From NCBI GenBank assembly GCA_937960595.1, contig CALGPL010000038.1, positions 107-64,106 of the forward strand: 64,000 bases of DNA. Reading direction: 5' to 3'. Positions within the stretch are counted from its first letter, which is position 1. Every line of letters starts with the position of its first letter. The stretch is from an uncultured Anaerolineales bacterium. GTDB taxonomy: Bacteria > Chloroflexota > Anaerolineae > Anaerolineales > Villigracilaceae. A program made the translations under genes and the position numbers. Shown piece by piece: positions 25,315 through 34,108 of this stretch. The notes below the pieces were generated by a model, which saw only the letters and a program-made list of their open reading frames with translations, searched no databases and had not been told where the DNA came from.

Positions 25315-26148
25315 TTACAAATACGTCTCCAACAAACTCCCGACCTCTTCCATATTGAACACCGGCCCATCCACGCAGATCAGTTTTTCGCCCAGGTTGC
25401 AGCGTCCGCATTTGCCCAGGCCGCAGTGCATGCGCGCCTCCAGCGTGACGTAGTTGTTCTGCGGGGCGAAGCCCATCTCGGCCAGCAGGCGGGTGACGTA
25501 GTGAATCATGATCGGCGGGCCGCAGGTGATGCTGACGGCGTTCTCCGGCGAGGGGTCCACCTTCTTGAGCAGGTCGGTGATGAGCCCCACGTTGTGGTCC
25601 CATTTCTTGTCGGGGACGTCCACGGTCAGGTGCAGGCTGGTGTTGGGCGCTTTGCGCCACTCCTCGTACTCATCGGTGAAGACGAGCAGGTCGGGCCGCC
25701 GCGCCGCCCACAGGATGGTCAGCCGCCCGTAGTCGGCGCGGCGGTCGAGGACGTGCTGGATGACCGGGCGCAGCGGCGCGCCGCCGATGCCGCCGCCCAA
25801 CACCACCAGGTTCTTGCCGCGAAACTGCTCCATCGGGAAGCAGTTGCCCAGCGGGCCGCGCACGCCGACCAGGTCGCCCTCGCCCAGTTCGTGCAGGCCG
25901 GTGGTGACGTTGCCCAGCCGGTTGACGGCAAAGTCGAGATAGGGGCCGCGTTCGGGGGCGTTGGCAATCCCAAAGGGCGCCTCGCCCAACCCAAAGGCCG
26001 AGAGGAAGGCAAACTGCCCCGGCTTGCAGTCGCAAAAGGCCTGGCTCCCGCCGTTCAGCAGTTCGACGCGCAGGAGTTTGATTTCGGTCGCCAGGTCTTT
26101 GACGGCCACCAGCCGCCCCAGGTGCGGCATCATGGGATTCTGGTTCAT
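25315..26148 (-). CDS. FAD/NAD(P)-binding [2Fe-2S] oxidoreductase, NfnA / PyrK / AsrB / sulfhydrogenase-gamma-like
   Basis: FAFLSAFGLGEAPF (FAD), VLGGGIGGAPLR (NAD(P)), and a C-terminal CGLGKCGRCNLG cluster motif. Confidence 0.85.
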   Translation of the reverse strand: MNQNPMMPHLGRLVAVKDLATEIKLLRVELLNGGSQAFCDCKPGQFAFLSAFGLGEAPFGIANAPERGPYLDFAVNRLGNVTTGLHELGEGDLVGVRGPLGNCFPMEQFRGKNLVVLGGGIGGAPLRPVIQHVLDRRADYGRLTILWAARRPDLLVFTDEYEEWRKAPNTSLHLTVDVPDKKWDHNVGLITDLLKKVDPSPENAVSITCGPPIMIHYVTRLLAEMGFAPQNNYVTLEARMHCGLGKCGRCNLGEKLICVDGPVFNMEEVGSLLETYL

Positions 26149-27146
26149 GCCGGCCTCCCCAGGTCGCTCAACACTTCGGTGATGTCAATGTTCACCGGGC
26201 AGGACTCCACGCAGCGCCCGCAGCCGGTGCAGGCCGGAGCCTCGCCCAGGTCGTACTGCTGCGGATAGTAATAGAATTTGCAGAAGATGCGGTTGCGCAG
26301 ACGTTCTCCCGCCTGCGCTCGCGGCCGGTGACCGCCCGCCACCAGGCGGTAATTCTCGCCGGTGCAGGCGTCCCAGCAGCGGATGCGCTCGAAGCGCCCG
26401 GCCTCGAGGGCCTCGTCGCGCACGATGAAACAGCGGCAGGTCGGGCAGACGTAGGCGCAGACGCGGCAGGAGAGGCAGCGTTCGGCCACCTGCTGCCAGT
26501 ACTCGTCGTCGAAATGGGACGGCCAAACGGCGCGCGGCGGCAGCGGGAAGACGTTCTCCGAGCGGACAGACGGCGGCGGGACCTCGTCGGTGGGCGTCCA
26601 GCCGGAGGGCAGCAGCGCCGCGCCCCTCTCGCTCACGGCGCGCGCCAGGTAGCCGCTCTCCGTCTCGTAGAGCATCACGTCCATCCCGGTTTCGTCGTCG
26701 GGCGCGCCGCCCATCGAGGTGCAGAAGCAGGTCGGCAGCATCGCGCGGCAGGCCAGGCCGACCAGGACGGTCTGTTCGCGGCGGCGGGCGTAGTAGGGGT
26801 CGGCGGGGGCATGATTCAGGAACAGGGCGTCCAGGGTCAGCAGGCCGCGGGCGTCGCAGGGACGGACGCCAAACAAGACGGCGCGGCCCTCGGGCAGGGT
26901 TTCGGTCAAGGTCACCTCGCCGCCGCGCTTGCGAATTTCGAACAGGCGCTCGGTGGGCGGGAAGAAGAATTCCTTGGCCGAGAGTGTGGGGCGGCCGTAG
27001 TCCCATTCGATCTGGCTGCTGCCGCCGACCGGACGGTAGAGCAGAATGCCGTCCACGTTGCGCGGGGCGAGCAGGGTCATCTCGGCGGCCAGGGCGTCGA
27101 GCCAGGCGGCCAGTTCGGGGCGGGAGATTTTCCAGGCGGCGTTCAT
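26145..27146 (-). CDS. 4Fe-4S dicluster subunit, AsrA / sulfhydrogenase-beta-like
   Basis: CLSCRVCAYVCPTCRCF and CTGCGRCVESCP motifs. The start overlaps the previous stop. Confidence 0.8.
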   Translation of the reverse strand: MNAAWKISRPELAAWLDALAAEMTLLAPRNVDGILLYRPVGGSSQIEWDYGRPTLSAKEFFFPPTERLFEIRKRGGEVTLTETLPEGRAVLFGVRPCDARGLLTLDALFLNHAPADPYYARRREQTVLVGLACRAMLPTCFCTSMGGAPDDETGMDVMLYETESGYLARAVSERGAALLPSGWTPTDEVPPPSVRSENVFPLPPRAVWPSHFDDEYWQQVAERCLSCRVCAYVCPTCRCFIVRDEALEAGRFERIRCWDACTGENYRLVAGGHRPRAQAGERLRNRIFCKFYYYPQQYDLGEAPACTGCGRCVESCPVNIDITEVLSDLGRPA

Positions 27147-27147
27147 C

Positions 27148-28530
27148 CTAGCCCTCCTTGTACTCGCCCGACAGGACGGTCACCACCGGCGAGGGGACGG
27201 CGGCCTGCCCGGCGCGGTGGCCAAAAGCGCGTTCAATCTCCTGCGCCAGTTTCTGATTCAGGAGGCTGATGGGAATGTCCATCGGGCAGGCTTCCTCGCA
27301 CTGGTTGCAGCCCACGCAGCGACCGGCCAGATGATAGGCGCGGCCGAGGTGGAAGGTGCGCTTCTCGTTCAGGCCGATGCCCAGCCCCACCCAGAGCGAG
27401 TCATCGCGCTCGAAGAGACAGGTGGGGCAATCGCACAACGGACAGGCCTGGCGGCAGGCGTAACAACGGATGCAGCGGTCGAACTGCGCCAGCCAGTAGT
27501 CCATCCGTTCGGCAGGAGAGGCAGCCTCCAGCGCGGCAACGCTTTCGGCGACCGGCGACGGTGGACGGTGGGCGGCAGACGGCGGTTCCCCGATGAGCGT
27601 GTCATAGACCACCGGCGTGCGTTCCTCGCAGGCGGCGCAGCGGGCTTGCAGACGGCCGTCTTTATCCCGCACGCCCTCGCAGACGACGCCGATGAGATGC
27701 ACCTTATCGCGCGGGAAGCGGTTCTCGGCCAGCATGACGTTGACCGTGCGGGCGTCGCAGGGCTTGACCACCACCGCCACCGGCTTGGGCGGCTCCTTGC
27801 GGTGGACGGCCATCAGCGCGCCCGATAGGCTGACCTTGTCGGCGATATAGGTCGTCAGGTTGTGGGTGCAGTTCGGGTTCCAGGTGAGACGGCCGACATC
27901 GTCGGCGTCATAGACGAAGGCCGGACGGGTGCGGCCGCGCGGCCCGACCTCGTAGCCGATGACGCAGCCGTATTCGCCGCCGGCCAGCAATTCGCGCGCC
28001 CGGGCCTGGATGGCCTCCGCCTTGGCGGCGCAGTCCACCTCGGCCTGCTCCTCCACCTCGGCCAACTGTTTCTTCAACGCCGCGAGCGGTTCACTCATGG
28101 CCGACGATGGTTCGCTGAGCGCGGAAGACCCGCGCCAGTGGGCCGGGCCCAGCGGACGGACCGTCTCGGCGAATTCGTTGGTGATGCGGGCGAAGCGCTC
28201 GCCCTCCGAGGCCGAGACCCAGTCCAGGCGCAGGCGCTCCGGCTCCAGACCGGCGAAGGCGAGCAGCGACTTCAGGATGGGGATGCGCTTGGCGGCGCGG
28301 TGGTTGCCGGTGTCGTAGTGGCATTCGCCGATGTGACAGCCCAGCACCAGGACGCCGTCGGCGCCGCTGTCGAAGGCGCGCAGAATCAACTCGGGCGAGA
28401 CGCGCCCCGAGCAGGGGACGCGCACCGAGCGGATGTTGGCGGGCGATTTCAGGCGGGCAATGCCGGCCGTGTCGGCGCCGGTGTAGGAACACCAGGTGCA
28501 GAGAAAGGCGACGAGTTTCGGTTCGTACAT
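27148..28530 (-). CDS. MvhD-like domain fused to an Fe-S (FrhB/HydB-like, 2x4Fe-4S) domain
   Basis: The N-terminus MYEPKLVAFLCTWCSYTGADTAG...VRVPCSGRVSPELILRAF..GADGVLVLGCHIGECHY is MvhD/FlxD-like. The C-terminus carries CIRCYACRQACPLCDC and CVGCNQCEEACP. The ATG at 28530 overlaps the TGA of the upstream gene. Confidence 0.82.
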   Translation of the reverse strand: MYEPKLVAFLCTWCSYTGADTAGIARLKSPANIRSVRVPCSGRVSPELILRAFDSGADGVLVLGCHIGECHYDTGNHRAAKRIPILKSLLAFAGLEPERLRLDWVSASEGERFARITNEFAETVRPLGPAHWRGSSALSEPSSAMSEPLAALKKQLAEVEEQAEVDCAAKAEAIQARARELLAGGEYGCVIGYEVGPRGRTRPAFVYDADDVGRLTWNPNCTHNLTTYIADKVSLSGALMAVHRKEPPKPVAVVVKPCDARTVNVMLAENRFPRDKVHLIGVVCEGVRDKDGRLQARCAACEERTPVVYDTLIGEPPSAAHRPPSPVAESVAALEAASPAERMDYWLAQFDRCIRCYACRQACPLCDCPTCLFERDDSLWVGLGIGLNEKRTFHLGRAYHLAGRCVGCNQCEEACPMDIPISLLNQKLAQEIERAFGHRAGQAAVPSPVVTVLSGEYKEG

Positions 28531-31500
28531 CAGGCCACCTCCAGCGGCGCGTCGACCAGGGCGCCGAGCAATTCGGCCACCAGTTCGCGGTCGTTGAAGT
28601 GGACGATGCTCATGGCCTTGTTCGGGCAGGCCCCGGCGCAGGTGCCGCAGCCCTTGCAGACGAAGATATTGACTTTCGCCAGTCCGTCCTGGAGCGTGAT
28701 CGCCCCATACGGACAGGCCGCCGCGCACTGACCGCAGCCGGCGCACTGCAGCGGGTTGACCTCGGCCACGATCGGGTCGAGCAGGATGGCGCCCTGGTCG
28801 AGCAGGGAAAGCGCCGCAGCAGCCGCCGCCCCGGCCTGGGCGACGCTGTCGGGGATGTCTTTCGGCCCCTGGCAGGCGCCTGCCAGGTAGATGCCCTGGG
28901 TGACGGTCTCGACCGGCGCCAGTTTGGGATGCCGCTCGAGGAAGAAGCCGTCGGCGCTGCGGTTGACGCCGAAGAGCGCGGCCAGTTTGGCCGTGTCGGG
29001 CTGCGGCTCGAAGCCGGTCGCCAGGACGACCATGTCCACGTCCACGTGGCTGGGCTGACCGTGGAAGGCCTCGTTCCAGCGGACGCGCAGTTTGGCGCCC
29101 TTCTGCTCGATGGCCTGGATGCGCCCGTGATAGAAGTGGACGCCCATGCCGGCGGCGTGTTTGTAGAACTCCTCATAGCCTTTGCCAAAGGCGCGGATAT
29201 CGCGGTAGATTTCGTGCACTTCCACGCCCAGATACTCGCGCGCCATGTGCGATAGTTTGAGCGAGTACATGCAGCAGACCCGCGAGCAATACTCGTTGTA
29301 GTTGTGGTCGCGGCTGCCCACGCAGTGGACGATGGCGATGGACTTGGGCGGCTTGCCGTTCTTGAGCAGCACCTTGCCCTGAGTCGGCCCGCCGGAGTTG
29401 ATCAGGCGTTCGAATTGCAGGGCGGTCAGGATGTTGTCGAGTTTGCCGTAGTTCAGTTCTGGAACCCGCGCCGGGTCGAAGTCCTTGAAGCCGGTCGCCA
29501 GGATGATCGCCCCGACGGTCAGTTCCACCGTTTCGTCCTGCATGTTGTGGTCAATCGCCCCGCGATCGCAGGCCGCCTCGCACTCCAGGCACTCCGAGCA
29601 GACCCCGCAGCGCAGGCAGCGCGCCGCCTCGGCCAGGGCTTCCTCCTCGGTCATCGTCTGGTCCACTTCGCGGAAGTTGTTTTCGCGTTCCTGCGGCGGC
29701 AGGGTGCGGATGGGGATGCGCCCGGCGCGGCTGACGTCGCCGCCGGCAAACTTGGCCTCGATCTCGGCCGGGGTCAGTTCCGCTTTCGGCGGCAGGACCG
29801 GCTCCGGCACGCCCTCGCCGCCGTTCAGGTAACGGTCCACGCAGCGGGCGACGCGGTGGCCCTCGGCGATGGCGTCCACCACAAAGAAGGTCGTGCCGCG
29901 CCGCAGGTCGCCGGCGGCGAAAACGCCCGGACGGGTGGTCATCATCTCCTCGTTGGCCCACAGGCCGATGGGATAGCGGATGGCGATGCTGCCGTCCTCG
30001 GGCAGGAAGGAGAAATCGGGCCGCTGGCCGAGCGCCCAGATGACCATGTCGCAGGGGATGATGTGTTCGCTGCCGGGGATCTCGCGCACCTGGCGCTGGC
30101 CGTTGACGATGCCGCCCACCTCGGCCTCCAGGCACATCACGCCGACGATTTTATCGTGCTTGACGACGATTTCTTTGAAGACGCGGTTCTTGATGATTTC
30201 CACGCCCTCGGCCTCGGCCTCGTGCAGTTCGTTGAACGAGGCGCGCATGCCGCGGCAGACGATCTTGACCTTGGGCCGGCCAAGGCGGATGGCGGTGCGG
30301 GCCGAGTCGAGGGCCACGTCGCCCGCCCCCAGGACGACGATTTCGCGTCCGCTCAGGTCGAGCGGTTCGCCCAGGCAGGCGCGCCGCAGCAGATCGAGGC
30401 TGAGCCAGTTGTCGGGGTGGTCTGAGCCGGGGATGTTCAATTTCTGGGCGCTGTGCGCGCCGGTGGCGACGACGACCGCATCGTAGCCTTTCTGGAACAG
30501 GCCGGGGATGTCATCGACGCGGGTGTTGAGGCGCAGTTCCACGCCCTCGTCCACGATTTGCTGGACCTCCCAGTCGAGGCGGTCGTAGGGCAGGCGGTGG
30601 GGCGGAATGCCGACCCGCATCATGCCGCCGGCCACCGGCAGGGCGTCGAAGACGGTGACCTTGTGGCCGAGGCGCACCAGGTCGAGGCCGGCGGTCAGGC
30701 CGGCGGGTCCGGCCCCGATGACGGCCACTTTCTTGCCGGTCGGCGGATGGTGGTGCTGGAAGGGCGTCCCGACCAGGGATTTGTCGCGCATGTGCGGCAG
30801 TTCGTCGCGGTGGGCGTAGGCCCAGTCGGCGACGAAACGCTTGAGCGCCATGATGCTGACCGGTTCGTCCACCTGACCGCGCGTGCAGGCCTCTTCACAA
30901 GGATGGTTACACACCCGCCCGCAGATGGACGGGAAGGGATGCTCGCGGCGGATGGCCCAGTAGGCGTCGGCGTAGCGGCGGGCGTGGATGAGGGCGATGT
31001 AGCCCTCGGCGCGCTGGTCGGTGGGGCAGGCCGAGCGGCAGGGGGCCACGCCGCGCTTTTCGATGGCGTAGGCGCCCGGCACGGCCTGCGGGGTGTTGCG
31101 ATAGACGGCCTTGCGCTTGCTCAGCCCGATTTCGAAGGGGTTGATCACCTCCACCGGGCAGACCTCGGCGCACTGTCCGCAGCCCGCGCAGACATCCTCT
31201 TTGACGTAGCGCGCCTTGCGCCGCACGCGCACGTTGTAATTGCCCACGTAACCGGAGACGGCTTCCACCTCGCTGTAGGCGAGCAGGGTGATGTTGGGGT
31301 GGCGCCCGGCGGAGACCATCTTGGGGGTCAGGATGCAGGCGGCGCAGTCCATGGTGGGGAAGGTCTTGTAGAGTTGCCCCATGTGGCCGCCGATGGAGGA
31401 GTCGCGCTCGACCAGATAGACCTGTTTGCCGGCGTCGGCCAGGCGCAGGGAGGCATCAATTCCGGCGATTCCGCCGCCGACCACCAGCACAGACTGAGTC

Positions 31501-31928
31501 ATGTCCACCGCGCGCGGCTCGAGCGGGTCGTGATGGTGGACGCGCTCGACCGCCGCCCGCACCAGGCCGCGCGCCTTGATGGTCGCCTGTTCGCGGTTGT
31601 TGATGACCCACGAACATTGCTCGCGGATGTTGGCCATCTGGAAGAAGAACGGATTCAATCCGGCATCGGCGCAGGCCTGGCGGAAAGTCGGCTCGTGCAT
31701 CAGCGGCGAGCAGGAGGCGACCACGACGCGGTTCAGGCCGTATTCTTGGATGTCTTGTTTGATCAACTCCTGGCCGGGGTTGGAACACATGTAGGTGTAG
31801 TCGCGCGCCACCACCACGCCGTCCAGTTCGCGGGCGAAGCGGGCGACGTCGGCCACGTCCACGGTGGCGGCGATGTTCGTGCCGCAGTGACAGACATACA
31901 CGCCGGTCTTGACCTTTGCGCGGTTCAT
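28530..31928 (-). CDS. hdrA: HdrA-like flavoprotein with an inserted GltD/NfnB-like NAD(P)H:FAD module (1132 aa)
   Basis: The HdrA N-terminus is VYVCHCGTNIAATVDV...VVGGGIAGIDASL...MDCAACILTPK. The insertion is APCRSACP...CGRVCNHPCEEAC...VAVIGAGPAGLTAG...VVLGAGDVALD...FAAGD. The HdrA body then resumes with HCVGSRD...YCSRVCCMYSLK and a C-terminal 2x4Fe-4S domain. Confidence 0.88.
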   Translation of the reverse strand: MNRAKVKTGVYVCHCGTNIAATVDVADVARFARELDGVVVARDYTYMCSNPGQELIKQDIQEYGLNRVVVASCSPLMHEPTFRQACADAGLNPFFFQMANIREQCSWVINNREQATIKARGLVRAAVERVHHHDPLEPRAVDMTQSVLVVGGGIAGIDASLRLADAGKQVYLVERDSSIGGHMGQLYKTFPTMDCAACILTPKMVSAGRHPNITLLAYSEVEAVSGYVGNYNVRVRRKARYVKEDVCAGCGQCAEVCPVEVINPFEIGLSKRKAVYRNTPQAVPGAYAIEKRGVAPCRSACPTDQRAEGYIALIHARRYADAYWAIRREHPFPSICGRVCNHPCEEACTRGQVDEPVSIMALKRFVADWAYAHRDELPHMRDKSLVGTPFQHHHPPTGKKVAVIGAGPAGLTAGLDLVRLGHKVTVFDALPVAGGMMRVGIPPHRLPYDRLDWEVQQIVDEGVELRLNTRVDDIPGLFQKGYDAVVVATGAHSAQKLNIPGSDHPDNWLSLDLLRRACLGEPLDLSGREIVVLGAGDVALDSARTAIRLGRPKVKIVCRGMRASFNELHEAEAEGVEIIKNRVFKEIVVKHDKIVGVMCLEAEVGGIVNGQRQVREIPGSEHIIPCDMVIWALGQRPDFSFLPEDGSIAIRYPIGLWANEEMMTTRPGVFAAGDLRRGTTFFVVDAIAEGHRVARCVDRYLNGGEGVPEPVLPPKAELTPAEIEAKFAGGDVSRAGRIPIRTLPPQERENNFREVDQTMTEEEALAEAARCLRCGVCSECLECEAACDRGAIDHNMQDETVELTVGAIILATGFKDFDPARVPELNYGKLDNILTALQFERLINSGGPTQGKVLLKNGKPPKSIAIVHCVGSRDHNYNEYCSRVCCMYSLKLSHMAREYLGVEVHEIYRDIRAFGKGYEEFYKHAAGMGVHFYHGRIQAIEQKGAKLRVRWNEAFHGQPSHVDVDMVVLATGFEPQPDTAKLAALFGVNRSADGFFLERHPKLAPVETVTQGIYLAGACQGPKDIPDSVAQAGAAAAAALSLLDQGAILLDPIVAEVNPLQCAGCGQCAAACPYGAITLQDGLAKVNIFVCKGCGTCAGACPNKAMSIVHFNDRELVAELLGALVDAPLEVA

Positions 31929-33934
31929 CGCAGCGCCTCCTCGAGAATGCCTTCAATTTCGGCCATGATTTGCACTTCGGTAAAGCCGTTCTGGGTGGCT
32001 GCCCCGGCCGGACAGGCTGCCGCGCACGCTCCGCAGCCTTTGCACAGCACCTCGTTGACGTGCGCCACCAGCCGCCCGTTCTCTTGGCGCATTTCGATGG
32101 CGTGATAGGGACACAGCCCCTCGCAAGTGCGACAGCCGCCGCATTTTTCGGTCTGGATGAAGGTGGTGAACGGCTCGAGGAAGACCGAGCCGGCGTCCAT
32201 CAGCGAGAGCGCCGCGGCGGCCGCGGCCGCGCCCTGGGCGACGCTGTCGGGGATGTCCTTCGGCCCCTGGCAGGCGCCCGCCAGGAAGACGCCGTCGGTG
32301 GCCGTCTCGACCGGGGCCAGTTTGGGGTGCCGCTCGAGGAAGAAGCCGTCGGCGCTGCGGCTGACGCCGAACAGGACGCCGACCTGATGCTGGTCGGGCT
32401 GAGGCTCGGCGCCGGTGCTCAGGACAACCATGTCCACGAGCGTCTCGCGCGGTTTGCCGGTGTAGACATCCTCCATCAGGACCGCCAGACGCCCGTCATG
32501 CCTCTCGACGCGGATGCCCTGGTCGAAGCGGTAGAATTCGACGCCGTGCTGCTCGGCGCGTTCGTAGAAGGCCTCGTAGCCTTTGCCGAAGGCGCGCATG
32601 TCGCGGTAGAACTCGACCACCTCGGCCCCGACGTATTCGCGAATCATTTGGGCCAGTTTGAGCGAATACATGCAGCAGATGCGCGAACAGTATTCGTGCG
32701 GCCGGCCCTCGCTGACCGAGTCGCCGCGGCTGCCCACGCAGTGAATGATGGCGATCTTACGCGGCTTGCTGCCATCCTTGAGGCGCACCACGCCGCTGGT
32801 CGGCCCGCCGGTGTTGATGAGGCGCTCCATCTCCAGGCCGGTCAGGACGTTGTCGAGGAGGCCGTAGCCGTACTGGGGGGCGCGGCGCGGGTCGAAGGTC
32901 TCGTAGCCGGTTGCCAGGATGATGGCCCCGACTTCGATTTCCAGATGCTCTTCCTTCTGCTCGAAGTCAATCGCCCCGCGCGGGCAGAATTTCTCGCAGG
33001 CGCGGCATTTGCCGGTCTTGAAGTAGGCGCAGTTTTCGGTGTCTATGACCGGCACGCGCGGGATGGCCTGGGGAAAGGGCGAGTAGATGGCCGCCCGCGT
33101 CCCCAGCCCGAGGTCGAACTCGGAGGGGATTTTCTTCCAGGGGCATTTTTCGGTGCAGGTGCCGCAGCCGTTGCACAAATCCTCGCGCACGTAGCGCGGC
33201 TTGCGGCGCACGGTGACGGTGAAATTGCCCACGTAGCCGGCTACCGCCTCGACCTCGCTGTAGGTCAGCAAGGTAATGTTCGGGTGGTGGCCGACGGAGA
33301 CCATCTTGGGGGTCAGGATGCAGGCGGCGCAGTCCATGGTGGGGAAGGTCTTGAAGAGTTGCGCCATGTGCCCGCCGATGCTGGGCTGGCGTTCGACCAG
33401 ATAGACCTGCTTGCCGGCGTCGGCCAGGCGCAGGGCGGCCTCGATGCCGGTGATGCCGCCGCCGACCACCAGGGCAGCCTGTTTCAGACCCACCGAGCGG
33501 CTCTCCAGTTGGCGGTGATAGGCGACGCGATGGACGGCTGCCCCCACCAGCGACATGGCCTTGCGCGTGGCGGTCGAGCGGTTATCGGCAATCCACGAGC
33601 AATGTTCGCGGATGTTGGCCATCTGGAACAGGAAGGGATTCAAGCCGGCGTCGGCGCAGGCCTGGCGAAAGGTCGGCTCGTGCATCAGGGGCGAGCAGGA
33701 GGCGACGACGACGCGGTTCAGTCCCTCGCGCCGGATGTCTTCCTTGATGAGCGTCTGACCGGGGTCAGAACACATGTAGGTATAGTGGCGCGCCACGGCG
33801 ACATGCGGAAGCGTGCGGGCGTATTCGGTCACCGCTTCCACGTCCACGGTTGCGGCGATGTTGGTGCCGCAGTGACAAACGTAAACGCCCACGCGCGGCG
33901 ATTCCGGCGCAGGCGTCGGGCTATCGGGTTTCAT
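31925..33934 (-). CDS. hdrA: HdrA-like flavoprotein (canonical length, 669 aa)
   Basis: VYVCHCGTNIAATVDV...VVGGGITGIEAAL...MDCAACILTPK...HCVGSRG...YCSRICCMYSLK...CGGCRTCEGLCP...CKGCGACAAACP. The start is at MKPDSP (cat 33932-33934) with a GGAAGAGGG SD. Confidence 0.9.
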   Translation of the reverse strand: MKPDSPTPAPESPRVGVYVCHCGTNIAATVDVEAVTEYARTLPHVAVARHYTYMCSDPGQTLIKEDIRREGLNRVVVASCSPLMHEPTFRQACADAGLNPFLFQMANIREHCSWIADNRSTATRKAMSLVGAAVHRVAYHRQLESRSVGLKQAALVVGGGITGIEAALRLADAGKQVYLVERQPSIGGHMAQLFKTFPTMDCAACILTPKMVSVGHHPNITLLTYSEVEAVAGYVGNFTVTVRRKPRYVREDLCNGCGTCTEKCPWKKIPSEFDLGLGTRAAIYSPFPQAIPRVPVIDTENCAYFKTGKCRACEKFCPRGAIDFEQKEEHLEIEVGAIILATGYETFDPRRAPQYGYGLLDNVLTGLEMERLINTGGPTSGVVRLKDGSKPRKIAIIHCVGSRGDSVSEGRPHEYCSRICCMYSLKLAQMIREYVGAEVVEFYRDMRAFGKGYEAFYERAEQHGVEFYRFDQGIRVERHDGRLAVLMEDVYTGKPRETLVDMVVLSTGAEPQPDQHQVGVLFGVSRSADGFFLERHPKLAPVETATDGVFLAGACQGPKDIPDSVAQGAAAAAAALSLMDAGSVFLEPFTTFIQTEKCGGCRTCEGLCPYHAIEMRQENGRLVAHVNEVLCKGCGACAAACPAGAATQNGFTEVQIMAEIEGILEEALR

Positions 33935-34082
33935 ACGAACACCCTCTTCCTGGTGAGCACGAAAGTAATCCACACCTCGGCCACCTCCTTGGCGATGTTT
34001 GGTTACTTTACATTGTTGGTGTTTCCGAGGAGAGAAATCAAGTGATATTTGTCACAAAAAATAGGGAGAATCTGTAAGAACA

Positions 34083-34108
34083 CCCCCGTTCCTTTTCAGG
34101 GAACGGGT
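34083..34108 (-). terminator. Hairpin downstream of the metalloprotease gene
   Basis: cccccgttcc-ttttca-gggaacggg. The U-tract is weak. Confidence 0.4.

Follow-up and report, generated by a model that had tools for sequence, protein, structure and literature searches.

A 64-kb stretch of DNA from an uncultured Anaerolineales bacterium, called the window below, carries five genes on its minus strand, g1 to g5, which encode a complete HdrA, an HdrL protein (type III HdrA) and three iron-sulfur (FeS) and flavin proteins, at a locus that holds neither hdrB nor hdrC (Table 1). The window is contig C38 of an assembly of 2.47 Mb in 115 contigs that is 86.6% complete, and the closest named protein matches come from Anaerolineales metagenome bins. 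The genes are tightly packed, with overlaps of 4 nucleotides (nt) at g1/g2 and g4/g5, an overlap of 1 nt at g2/g3, a gap of 1 nt at g3/g4, and a GGAGG-like site ahead of every start codon. A sequence-only reading of this DNA had described five co-directional, overlapping genes, and its domain list is correct in every item. It had also seen no hdrBC, hydrogenase, fdh or metF gene beside the cluster, and scans of the neighboring genes bear this out both here and in the orthologous loci. The five-gene order is complete in four related genomes (G001, G019, G021 and G003), runs up to the contig ends in two more (G008 and G002), and is found again in four further loci, two from named Anaerolineae and one each from Dehalococcoidia and Hadarchaeota, in all of which the MvhD and FdhB-like genes are separate. 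This recurrence of the same gene order in relatives indicates that the arrangement is not due to chance. On the evidence of the sequence, g1 to g5 form a genuine operon, and its products look, by domain make-up and as the earlier reading had proposed, like one NAD(P)H- and ferredoxin-linked complex, a predicted soluble FeS flavoprotein assembly that would be Hdr-like without the disulfide-reducing subunits.

Table 1. Genes of the cluster and features upstream of it, in window coordinates (ORF, open reading frame; aa, amino acids)
Feature	Position	Strand	Evidence and remarks
g1, complete type-I HdrA	31925-33934	minus	ORF, 669 aa from ATG
g2, HdrL (type III HdrA)	28530-31928	minus	ORF, 1132 aa; Pfam, NCBIfam, PDB sequences
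g3, MvhD fused to FdhB/ElpB-like FeS domain	27148-28530	minus	ORF, 460 aa; Pfam, PDB sequences, AlphaFold2 model
g4, HydB/AsrA/FlxB-like FeS protein	26145-27146	minus	ORF, 333 aa; Pfam, NCBIfam, PDB sequences
g5, HydG/AsrB/FlxA-like FAD, NAD(P)H and [2Fe-2S] protein	25315-26148	minus	ORF, 277 aa; Pfam, PDB sequences
Predicted palindromic operator, TTTGTGAC-N4-ATCACTTG	34039-34058	minus	roughly 120 nt ahead of the g1 start codon
Hairpin resembling a terminator, behind the peptidase gene upstream	34085-34107	minus	count not above shuffled expectation

Over its full length, the product of g1 can be aligned with Methanothermococcus thermolithotrophicus HdrA (5odc_A, residues 2 to 652; 760 bits), and it is made up of an N-terminal FeS domain, a flavin adenine dinucleotide (FAD) domain, an unbroken inserted ferredoxin domain and a C-terminal ferredoxin domain. 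The HdrA core of g2 (residues 7 to 304 and 776 to 1126) is 68% and 55% identical to g1 in its two halves, but the ferredoxin insert that is intact in g1 is interrupted there by a GltD-like module. By hand count on the alignment, C205, E370 and K426 of g1 correspond to Cys197, E356 and K409 of 5odc_A, and C198, E840 and K891 of the g2 core occupy the same places, so that both paralogues retain all three residues. The E356/K409 pair of HdrA is described as the FAD-site residues for bifurcation (PMC12054007). In a tree of HdrA cores with 97 rows, the g1-type and g2-type clades of Anaerolineae are sisters (Shimodaira-Hasegawa-like approximate likelihood ratio support of 97), the two members of the Hadarchaeota tandem pair are sisters (support 100), and the Dehalococcoidia tandem pair falls inside one small clade (support 99), suggesting that the tandem pair arose or was homogenized at least three times. 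From this we infer that g1 and g2 work together, most simply as a heterodimer that replaces the HdrA homodimer.

The second Cys of the motif DCAAC, which is the Cys197-equivalent position, is encoded by TGA (selenocysteine) in both HdrA paralogues of G021, G003 and G008 (loci L021, L022 and L023), and by a Cys codon in G001, G002, G019 and the window (33322-33324 for g1 C205, 31335-31337 for g2 C198). SelA is still encoded in the genome of the window (contig C72) despite Cys in both of its HdrA paralogues. Public HdrL gene calls of about 930 aa are truncations at the selenocysteine TGA.

The module that interrupts g2 is a GltD/NfnB-like FAD and NAD(P)H module of about 500 residues (approximately 289 to 806), set inside the inserted ferredoxin domain, with K363, a FAD motif at G405-G410 and a nucleotide motif beginning at G534 (GAGDVA). 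Its best match is NfnA of Caldicellulosiruptor (9bov_A, 304 bits), followed by archaeal NfnA (9n5u_A, 279 bits) and by 8oh5_C (254 bits), which we take to belong to the Sporomusa Stn complex, although its PDB label reads formate dehydrogenase-O. Classical NfnB (4ylf_B) reaches only 198 bits, with an alignment split into two permuted pieces, and the RCLxCG segment of the insert is circularly permuted in the same way as in NfnA/StnA. At the column of K363, the alignment has Glu in 4ylf_B, presumably a ligand of the proximal [4Fe-4S] cluster, and Lys in 167 of 174 motif-matched sequences from 269 stored homologues. Moreover, C301, C340, C344 and K363 of g2 align with Cys108, Cys147, Cys151 and Lys170 of 9bov_A, reported as the ligands of the first (A7) cluster of NfnA (PMC11829005). 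In the account of solved NfnABC given there, the NfnL-like domain solely oxidizes NADPH and passes single electrons to a bifurcating site elsewhere. The g2 insert is thus, by its sequence, of the NfnA/StnA kind and is best read as a nucleotide entry or exit module, and as such it gives no evidence for a second bifurcating flavin. The proposal of the sequence-only reading that the operon unites two bifurcation modules is therefore not supported. For ANME-1, the idea that an HdrA-NfnB fusion may bifurcate at two sites has already been published (PMC9012536). A role of the GltD-like module in serving a glutamate synthase large subunit was also considered and dropped, as no gltB was found among the neighboring genes, to which that search was confined.

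The remaining three proteins would form the arm that carries electrons between a pyridine nucleotide and the HdrA core. Residues 1 to 135 of g3 are MvhD (Pfam FlpD, E of 1e-49) and resemble FlxD, whereas residues from about 166 to 458 form an FdhB/ElpB-like FeS domain that resembles FlxC; invariant cysteines in the alignment suffice for up to four [4Fe-4S] clusters. In an AlphaFold2 model of g3 with a predicted local distance difference test score of 80.7, the C-terminal part of about 290 residues superposes on ElpB (8rvu_E) with a Z score of 23.2 and a root-mean-square deviation of 3.1 over 262 aligned residues in VIA-align, and on FdhB (7bkb_E) with a Z score of 21.8; the match of the g3 model to 5odc_D has a Z score of 14.0. 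FrhB (Z about 12) and the sulfhydrogenase beta subunit (Z 10.2) score far below ElpB and FdhB with the same C-terminal part. In solved Hdr complexes, FdhB/ElpB together with MvhD/ElpC is described as the arm that feeds HdrA (PMC12350162), and g3 is, to judge from its model, this pair joined in one chain. The g3-type fusion has 2401 relatives at E <= 1e-10, the top 120 of them with full coverage.

The product of g4 has a Fer4_22 match in Pfam, matches the ShyB, HydB and AsrA models below their cut-offs, reaches 148 bits with the beta subunit of sulfhydrogenase I (9nez_B), and is a weak paralogue of the C-terminal part of g3 (E of 4e-8). The g5 protein, with its NAD_binding_1 and DHODB_Fe-S_bind matches in Pfam, belongs to the PyrK family. 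The earlier description of g5 as NfnA/PyrK-like is right on this point, but its likeness to NfnA-type proteins (4ylf_A, 70 bits) is smaller than that to the sulfhydrogenase gamma subunit (9nez_C, 174 bits), and g5 is nearer to the latter and to AsrB.

To place the cluster among related loci, two hidden Markov models (HMMs) were built here, from HdrB and from fused HdrCB, and applied to the window and to locus flanks. They gave no match in 30 kb of the window (15001-45000) or in the flanks of L019 to L022, L026, L028 and L052, and no CCG-domain match was found among the neighbor genes of the cluster. Full-length colinear HdrL occurs in 7 of 41 genomes of a family and order sample, the count also given by conserved gene order, and in 17 of 401 genomes of a sample that spans the phylum. 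When the upstream neighbors were compared in 32 HdrL loci, hdrB or fused hdrCB was found directly upstream of hdrL in 21 (one match being weak and another 0.6 kb away) and hdrA in nine; one of the remaining loci has hdrCB downstream, and the other stands back to back with mvhGA-hdrCB-hdrA-mvhD. In all nine loci with hdrA upstream, flx-like genes follow and the examined flanks hold no HdrB. Among the partners in the HdrB-linked loci are mvhDGA, a thioredoxin gene (L103), a MetVF-like gene (L105) and molybdopterin oxidoreductase genes. Because genes 3 to 5 have the FlxDCBA layout, the cluster is, on this comparison of gene content, a variant of Flx-Hdr with a second hdrA in the usual place of hdrCB. 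The sequence-only reading had named as a refutation of its proposal that orthologues always lie beside hdrBC, flx or metVF, as in known Flx-Hdr or Hdr-Met types. About half of this is seen: the FlxDCBA-like genes make the cluster a relative of Flx-Hdr, most of the more distant HdrL loci have hdrB or hdrCB, and the lineage carries hdrCBA-mvhDGA at another place in the genome.

The comparison also brought up other HdrL arrangements. In L103, L104 and L112, fused hdrCB is followed by hdrL with no mvhD or flx module, and in L103 a thioredoxin gene comes directly after hdrL; this type looks, from its genes, like an NAD(P)H-dependent Hdr and may act on a thioredoxin-like disulfide. The corresponding genomes (G094, G308 and G167) are complete 1.7-Mb single contigs of one genus of the same phylum and possibly offer a tractable model. 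L105 (G047:C1) combines hdrC-hdrB-hdrL, a fused MetV/MetF-like gene and a divergent flxDCBA-like module, an HdrL version of Hdr-MetVF. Giant fusion frames of about 1500 to 1900 aa, which some 20 genomes in the phylum-wide set contain (e.g., G033:C20, G016:C60, G013, G010, G039 and G011), match only residues from about 146 to 1046 of g2, with further HdrA-like parts after them.

Elsewhere in the same assembly, CCG domains occur in two proteins only, neither of them beside any hdrA. A 3.6-kb contig (C107:1-3558) carries the last part of a third hdrA, which the contig border truncates, followed by mvhD, mvhG and mvhA. With 90.8% identity, this contig matches a portion of the hdrC-hdrB-hdrA-mvhD-mvhG-mvhA operon found in G001, a genome of the same genus. 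The earlier statement that the cluster has no HdrBC partner thus stands for the locus but not for the organism, given the same-genus operons and the C107 fragment. The assembly further encodes a complete group 3b-type hydB-hydG-hydD-hydA cluster with a maturation protease and with a further ORF ahead of it (C45:31401-36543), whose HydB and HydG are 34 to 35% identical to g4 and g5, and, on C55, a stand-alone NfnB/GltA-like gene with no NfnA neighbor (410 bits, under the cut-off of 472 bits).

With the computed gene order, domain identities, residues of the FAD site and clusters, and the lack of HdrBC at the locus in hand, we infer how the proteins may assemble, pair their HdrA subunits, bind nucleotides and run. 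The cluster would encode an HdrA-based, Nfn-like complex of NADH, NADPH and ferredoxin, a reading to which we give a probability of about 0.4 and which draws on translational coupling, the conserved order, the E/K and Cys residues, the intact ferredoxin insert of g1, the type of the g2 insert, the g3 fusion, the likeness of g4 and g5 to the NADPH-binding beta-gamma module of sulfhydrogenase I, the lack of HdrB and HdrCB at this type of locus and the sister relationship of the cores. In this model, the five proteins would make one cytoplasmic complex without a thiol/disulfide subunit. The FAD of g5 would bind one pyridine nucleotide, and single electrons would pass between its [2Fe-2S] cluster, the clusters of g4, the FdhB/ElpB-like part of g3 and the [2Fe-2S] cluster of the MvhD domain, which would dock on an HdrA core formed by the putative g1-g2 heterodimer of sister paralogues. 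The NfnA/StnA-type module of g2 would be the second nucleotide site, with two [4Fe-4S] clusters linking it to the inserted ferredoxin domain, while the equivalent domain of g1 would be left free for ferredoxin. The HdrA-type FAD would be the only bifurcating flavin, and the predicted reaction, similar to that of Nfn and Stn, would be 2 NADPH + NAD+ + 2 Fd(ox) <-> 2 NADP+ + NADH + 2 Fd(red), probably running towards NADPH in vivo. A broader claim, which we put forward only tentatively and hold to be rather doubtful as yet, is that, next to NfnSL and NfnABC/Stn, the complex could represent a third structural class among the ferredoxin-dependent NADH:NADP+ transhydrogenases, in which the FAD of the HdrA-HdrL core would bifurcate without disulfide chemistry, with NADPH handled by a borrowed NfnA-type module and NADH by the Flx arm, in either direction.

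Several points weigh against an Nfn-like complex. The usual family motif YRRxRxEMPA behind GxGxxA is replaced in all seven Anaerolineae HdrBC-less loci, g2 itself reading CRGMR plus a 4-residue gap at this place, and a tree of the inserts joins those of these loci by a long stem of 0.77; given the drifted motif and the long stem, the g2 module may bind a nucleotide other than NADPH. The FdhB/ElpB-like fold modeled for g3 could hold a flavin and a substrate site of its own, and the energetics would depend on in vivo nucleotide ratios. A stand-alone NfnB/GltA-like gene is present in 7/7 genomes with the cluster and, over the whole sample, in 34 of 41, and this co-occurrence means that the cluster is not visibly replacing an Nfn. 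A complementary distribution of the cluster and Nfn was accordingly rejected, as NfnB/GltA-like genes occur with and without the cluster. Finally, hdrB or hdrCB lies beside another hdrA in G001 and G002 (both of the same genus), G003, G019 and G021, so HdrBC is encoded elsewhere in the lineage and could be supplied in trans.

This last point leads to the most serious competitor, which we nonetheless regard as unlikely: an NADH-dependent disulfide reductase of the Flx-Hdr kind that borrows HdrBC from the separate hdrCBA-mvhDGA operon, or uses another CCG protein, and bifurcates electrons from NAD(P)H to ferredoxin and a disulfide, as proposed for FlxABCD-HdrABC. Besides the presence of such hdrB or hdrCB genes in 5/5 relatives checked, it draws support from the 21 loci with hdrB or hdrCB directly upstream of hdrL, from L106, where hdrL-flx stands back to back with mvhGA-hdrCB-hdrA-mvhD, and L052, where the cluster is back to back with mvhGA, and from D. 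reducens, where an HdrL-like protein, HdrA and part of Flx are described together with HdrBC (PMC4759654). However, the separate hdrCBA-mvhDGA operon already includes an hdrA and an mvhD, the examined flanks lack hdrB in every locus with hdrA before hdrL, and neither of the two CCG proteins of the genome is next to an hdrA, in an assembly of limited completeness whose C107 is cut inside hdrA. Electrons may instead flow without any bifurcation, in a valve that acts as a plain NAD(P)H:ferredoxin oxidoreductase or an NADH:NADP transhydrogenase with the HdrA flavins as relays. The domains point only to soluble carriers as substrates and the NADPH-site motif has drifted in this clade, as such a valve would allow, but neither HdrA core has lost the E/K pair or the C197-equivalent residue, and relatives use selenocysteine at the latter position in both paralogues. 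Selenocysteine spent there argues for a demanding catalytic role, and we consider a simple valve quite improbable.

Two further partners for the complex can be drawn from the rest of the genome, and both seem to us very unlikely. The complex could dock with a group 3c Mvh or the group 3b HydBGDA hydrogenase and couple H2 to NAD(P)H and ferredoxin. The genome has both hydBGDA and the hdrA-mvhDGA fragment, mvhDGA follows hdrL in L033, L041, L077, L083 and L107, and mvhGA is divergent to the cluster in L052; yet the immediate neighborhood of the cluster is free of hydrogenase genes in the window, L019 to L022 and L026, and the role of MvhD is already filled by g3, with an FdhB-like rather than an MvhG-like partner. 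Hardly any more probable, and perhaps slightly less so, is a link to F420, in which g3 would retain a flavin in its FdhB/ElpB-like domain and oxidize F420H2 there, making F420 the missing third partner. The structural matches of this domain to ElpB and FdhB are in line with it, as is the hydride transfer from F420H2 to FAD described for ElpB (PMC12350162), and the CofD and CofE models are above their cut-offs in 5/5 genomes (this one, at C33:7097-8116 and C60:1-117, and G001, G002, G003 and G019). Against it, CofH (Fo synthase) was found in none of these five genomes, g3 matches FrhB_FdhB_C in Pfam only at E of 7e-4, below the cut-off, and has no FrhB_FdhB_N match, and records titled Bacteroidales, Bacillota, Spirochaetota and Myxococcaceae also have this FlxC-like protein encoded along with hdrA-flx genes. 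The occurrence of CofD and CofE without CofH may reflect Fo salvage or another use of these enzymes.

The genes around the operon are unrelated to it and have housekeeping roles or encode secreted proteins: a HAD hydrolase, a tetrapyrrole-type methylase and PGI downstream, and an InhA-like peptidase, an FGE-sulfatase protein and a ClpC-like ATPase upstream. The operator is the sole GTGA-N6-TCAC in the 64 kb and recurs upstream of five of eight orthologous operons (L019, L020 and L024, and in two copies each L021 and L022), being not found upstream of L026, L028 and L052. The Rex consensus TTGTGAANNNNTTCACAA with up to three mismatches has no match in the window, and the site was found with the looser GTGA-N6-TCAC core. 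We predict from its sequence an operator of the CRP/FNR or Rex type, between which regulators the site does not separate; a Rex-type DNA-binding domain match is present on contig C77 of the same genome. The core has 34 matches in the 2.47-Mb genome, mostly intragenic. One look-alike (C55:16881) precedes the stand-alone NfnB/GltA-like gene by 98 nt, and others (C12:19843 and 21601, and on C64) adjoin ORFs read by eye as CRP-like; such look-alikes may mark a shared redox regulon. The hairpin may separate the peptidase transcript from the operon, but scans for sigma-70 promoters and terminators gave counts not above shuffled expectation in the region. A GTG codon at 33973, in frame with g1 and 39 nt ahead of its ATG, has a stronger Shine-Dalgarno sequence (AAGGAGG) and would give a protein of 682 aa; in L020 and L021, the same GTG opens an upstream ORF of about 15 to 17 codons that ends in ATGA on the hdrA start and may be a coupled leader peptide.

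Few flavin-based electron-bifurcating cores are known, and HdrA is among them; in the cases described in a review (PMC5861303) and in solved complexes, it works with HdrBC and a disulfide. If the Nfn-like reading is true, this core can work without HdrBC, which would widen its range, and Anaerolineae, abundant in digesters, sediments and hot springs, would have an extra route for balancing NADPH, NADH and ferredoxin. Metagenomes contain the operon often, so that biochemical work on one such complex would give thousands of genes an annotation. Each part is known separately, including the Flx-Hdr layout and HdrL (type III HdrA). What is new here is the assignment of the insert to the NfnA/StnA kind by its Lys ligand and permutation, the same-genus hdrCBA-mvhDGA operon, Cys in place of selenocysteine, and the conserved TGTGA-N6-TCAC operator. 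Our literature searches found no description of an HdrBC-less HdrA-HdrL-Flx arrangement, and supplements of HdrA surveys may list such clusters.

Compared with known systems, g1 is about as close to the HdrA of the methanogen complexes MvhADG-HdrABC, Fdh-Hdr-Fmd and Elp-Hdr (5odc, 7bkb and 8rvu) as a bacterial HdrA can be, as its 760-bit match illustrates, but the locus lacks their HdrBC, MvhA/MvhG hydrogenase and FdhA/ElpA. The g4 and g5 proteins are homologues of the FeS and FAD/NADPH subunits of Pyrococcus furiosus sulfhydrogenase I (beta and gamma; 9nez and 9nf0) and of AsrAB, here without a hydrogenase or sulfite reductase catalytic subunit at the locus. The likeness to Flx of Desulfovibrio vulgaris rests on layout and domain make-up rather than on direct sequence comparison. 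The order hdrA, flxD (MvhD), flxC, flxB and flxA and the domain make-up of genes 3 to 5 are the same, with g5, which has FAD, [2Fe-2S] and NAD(P)-binding parts, in the place of FlxA. The locus differs in that hdrC and hdrB are missing, there is an additional HdrA that bears an NAD(P)H module, and flxD and flxC are fused in this lineage but separate in 22 of 23 other loci. FlxABCD-HdrABC (Hdr-Flox) is described as the NADH dehydrogenase/heterodisulfide reductase of D. vulgaris (Ramos et al. 2015, via PMC4759654 and PMC5947623), with FlxA as the predicted NADH dehydrogenase (PMC4759654), and records titled Bacteroidales, Spirochaetota, Myxococcaceae and Thermodesulfobacteriota contain loci of the form hdrB-hdrA-mvhD-g3C-g4-g5, where g3C is the C-terminal part of g3.

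HdrL, so named in Desulfobacterium autotrophicum (Strittmatter 2009, PMC2702500) and treated again by Sedano-Nunez 2018 (PMC5947623), also goes under type III HdrA (PMC12054007, 2025) and the HdrA-NfnB fusion of ANME-1 (Chadwick 2022, PMC9012536). It shares with g2 the GltD/NfnB-like module of about 500 residues in the ferredoxin insert and an mvhD gene after it, and a tandem hdrL/hdrA locus is noted in D. autotrophicum. In the published cases described in these sources, HdrL occurs with HdrBC, Mvh, Fdh or Dsr genes, or with several hdrA in ANME-1, whereas its partners here are HdrA and Flx-like proteins without HdrBC, and its nucleotide-site motif has drifted. HdrL1 and HdrL3 of D. autotrophicum have selenocysteine at the C197-equivalent, where g1 and g2 have Cys; selenocysteine there is not universal in the family. 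In NfnSL (classical NfnAB), the RCLxC segment of NfnB is colinear and Glu stands at the cluster column, unlike the permuted segment and K363 of g2. The NfnL-like NADPH domain, the permuted segment and the Cys3-Lys first cluster are instead shared with NfnABC/StnABC (Bfu; 9bov, 9n5u and 8oh5). The NuoF-like BfuB and NuoE-like BfuC of those complexes were not found among the five proteins or their neighbors, which were the proteins searched, and the bifurcating site here would be the FAD of HdrA rather than a flavobicluster with flavin mononucleotide.

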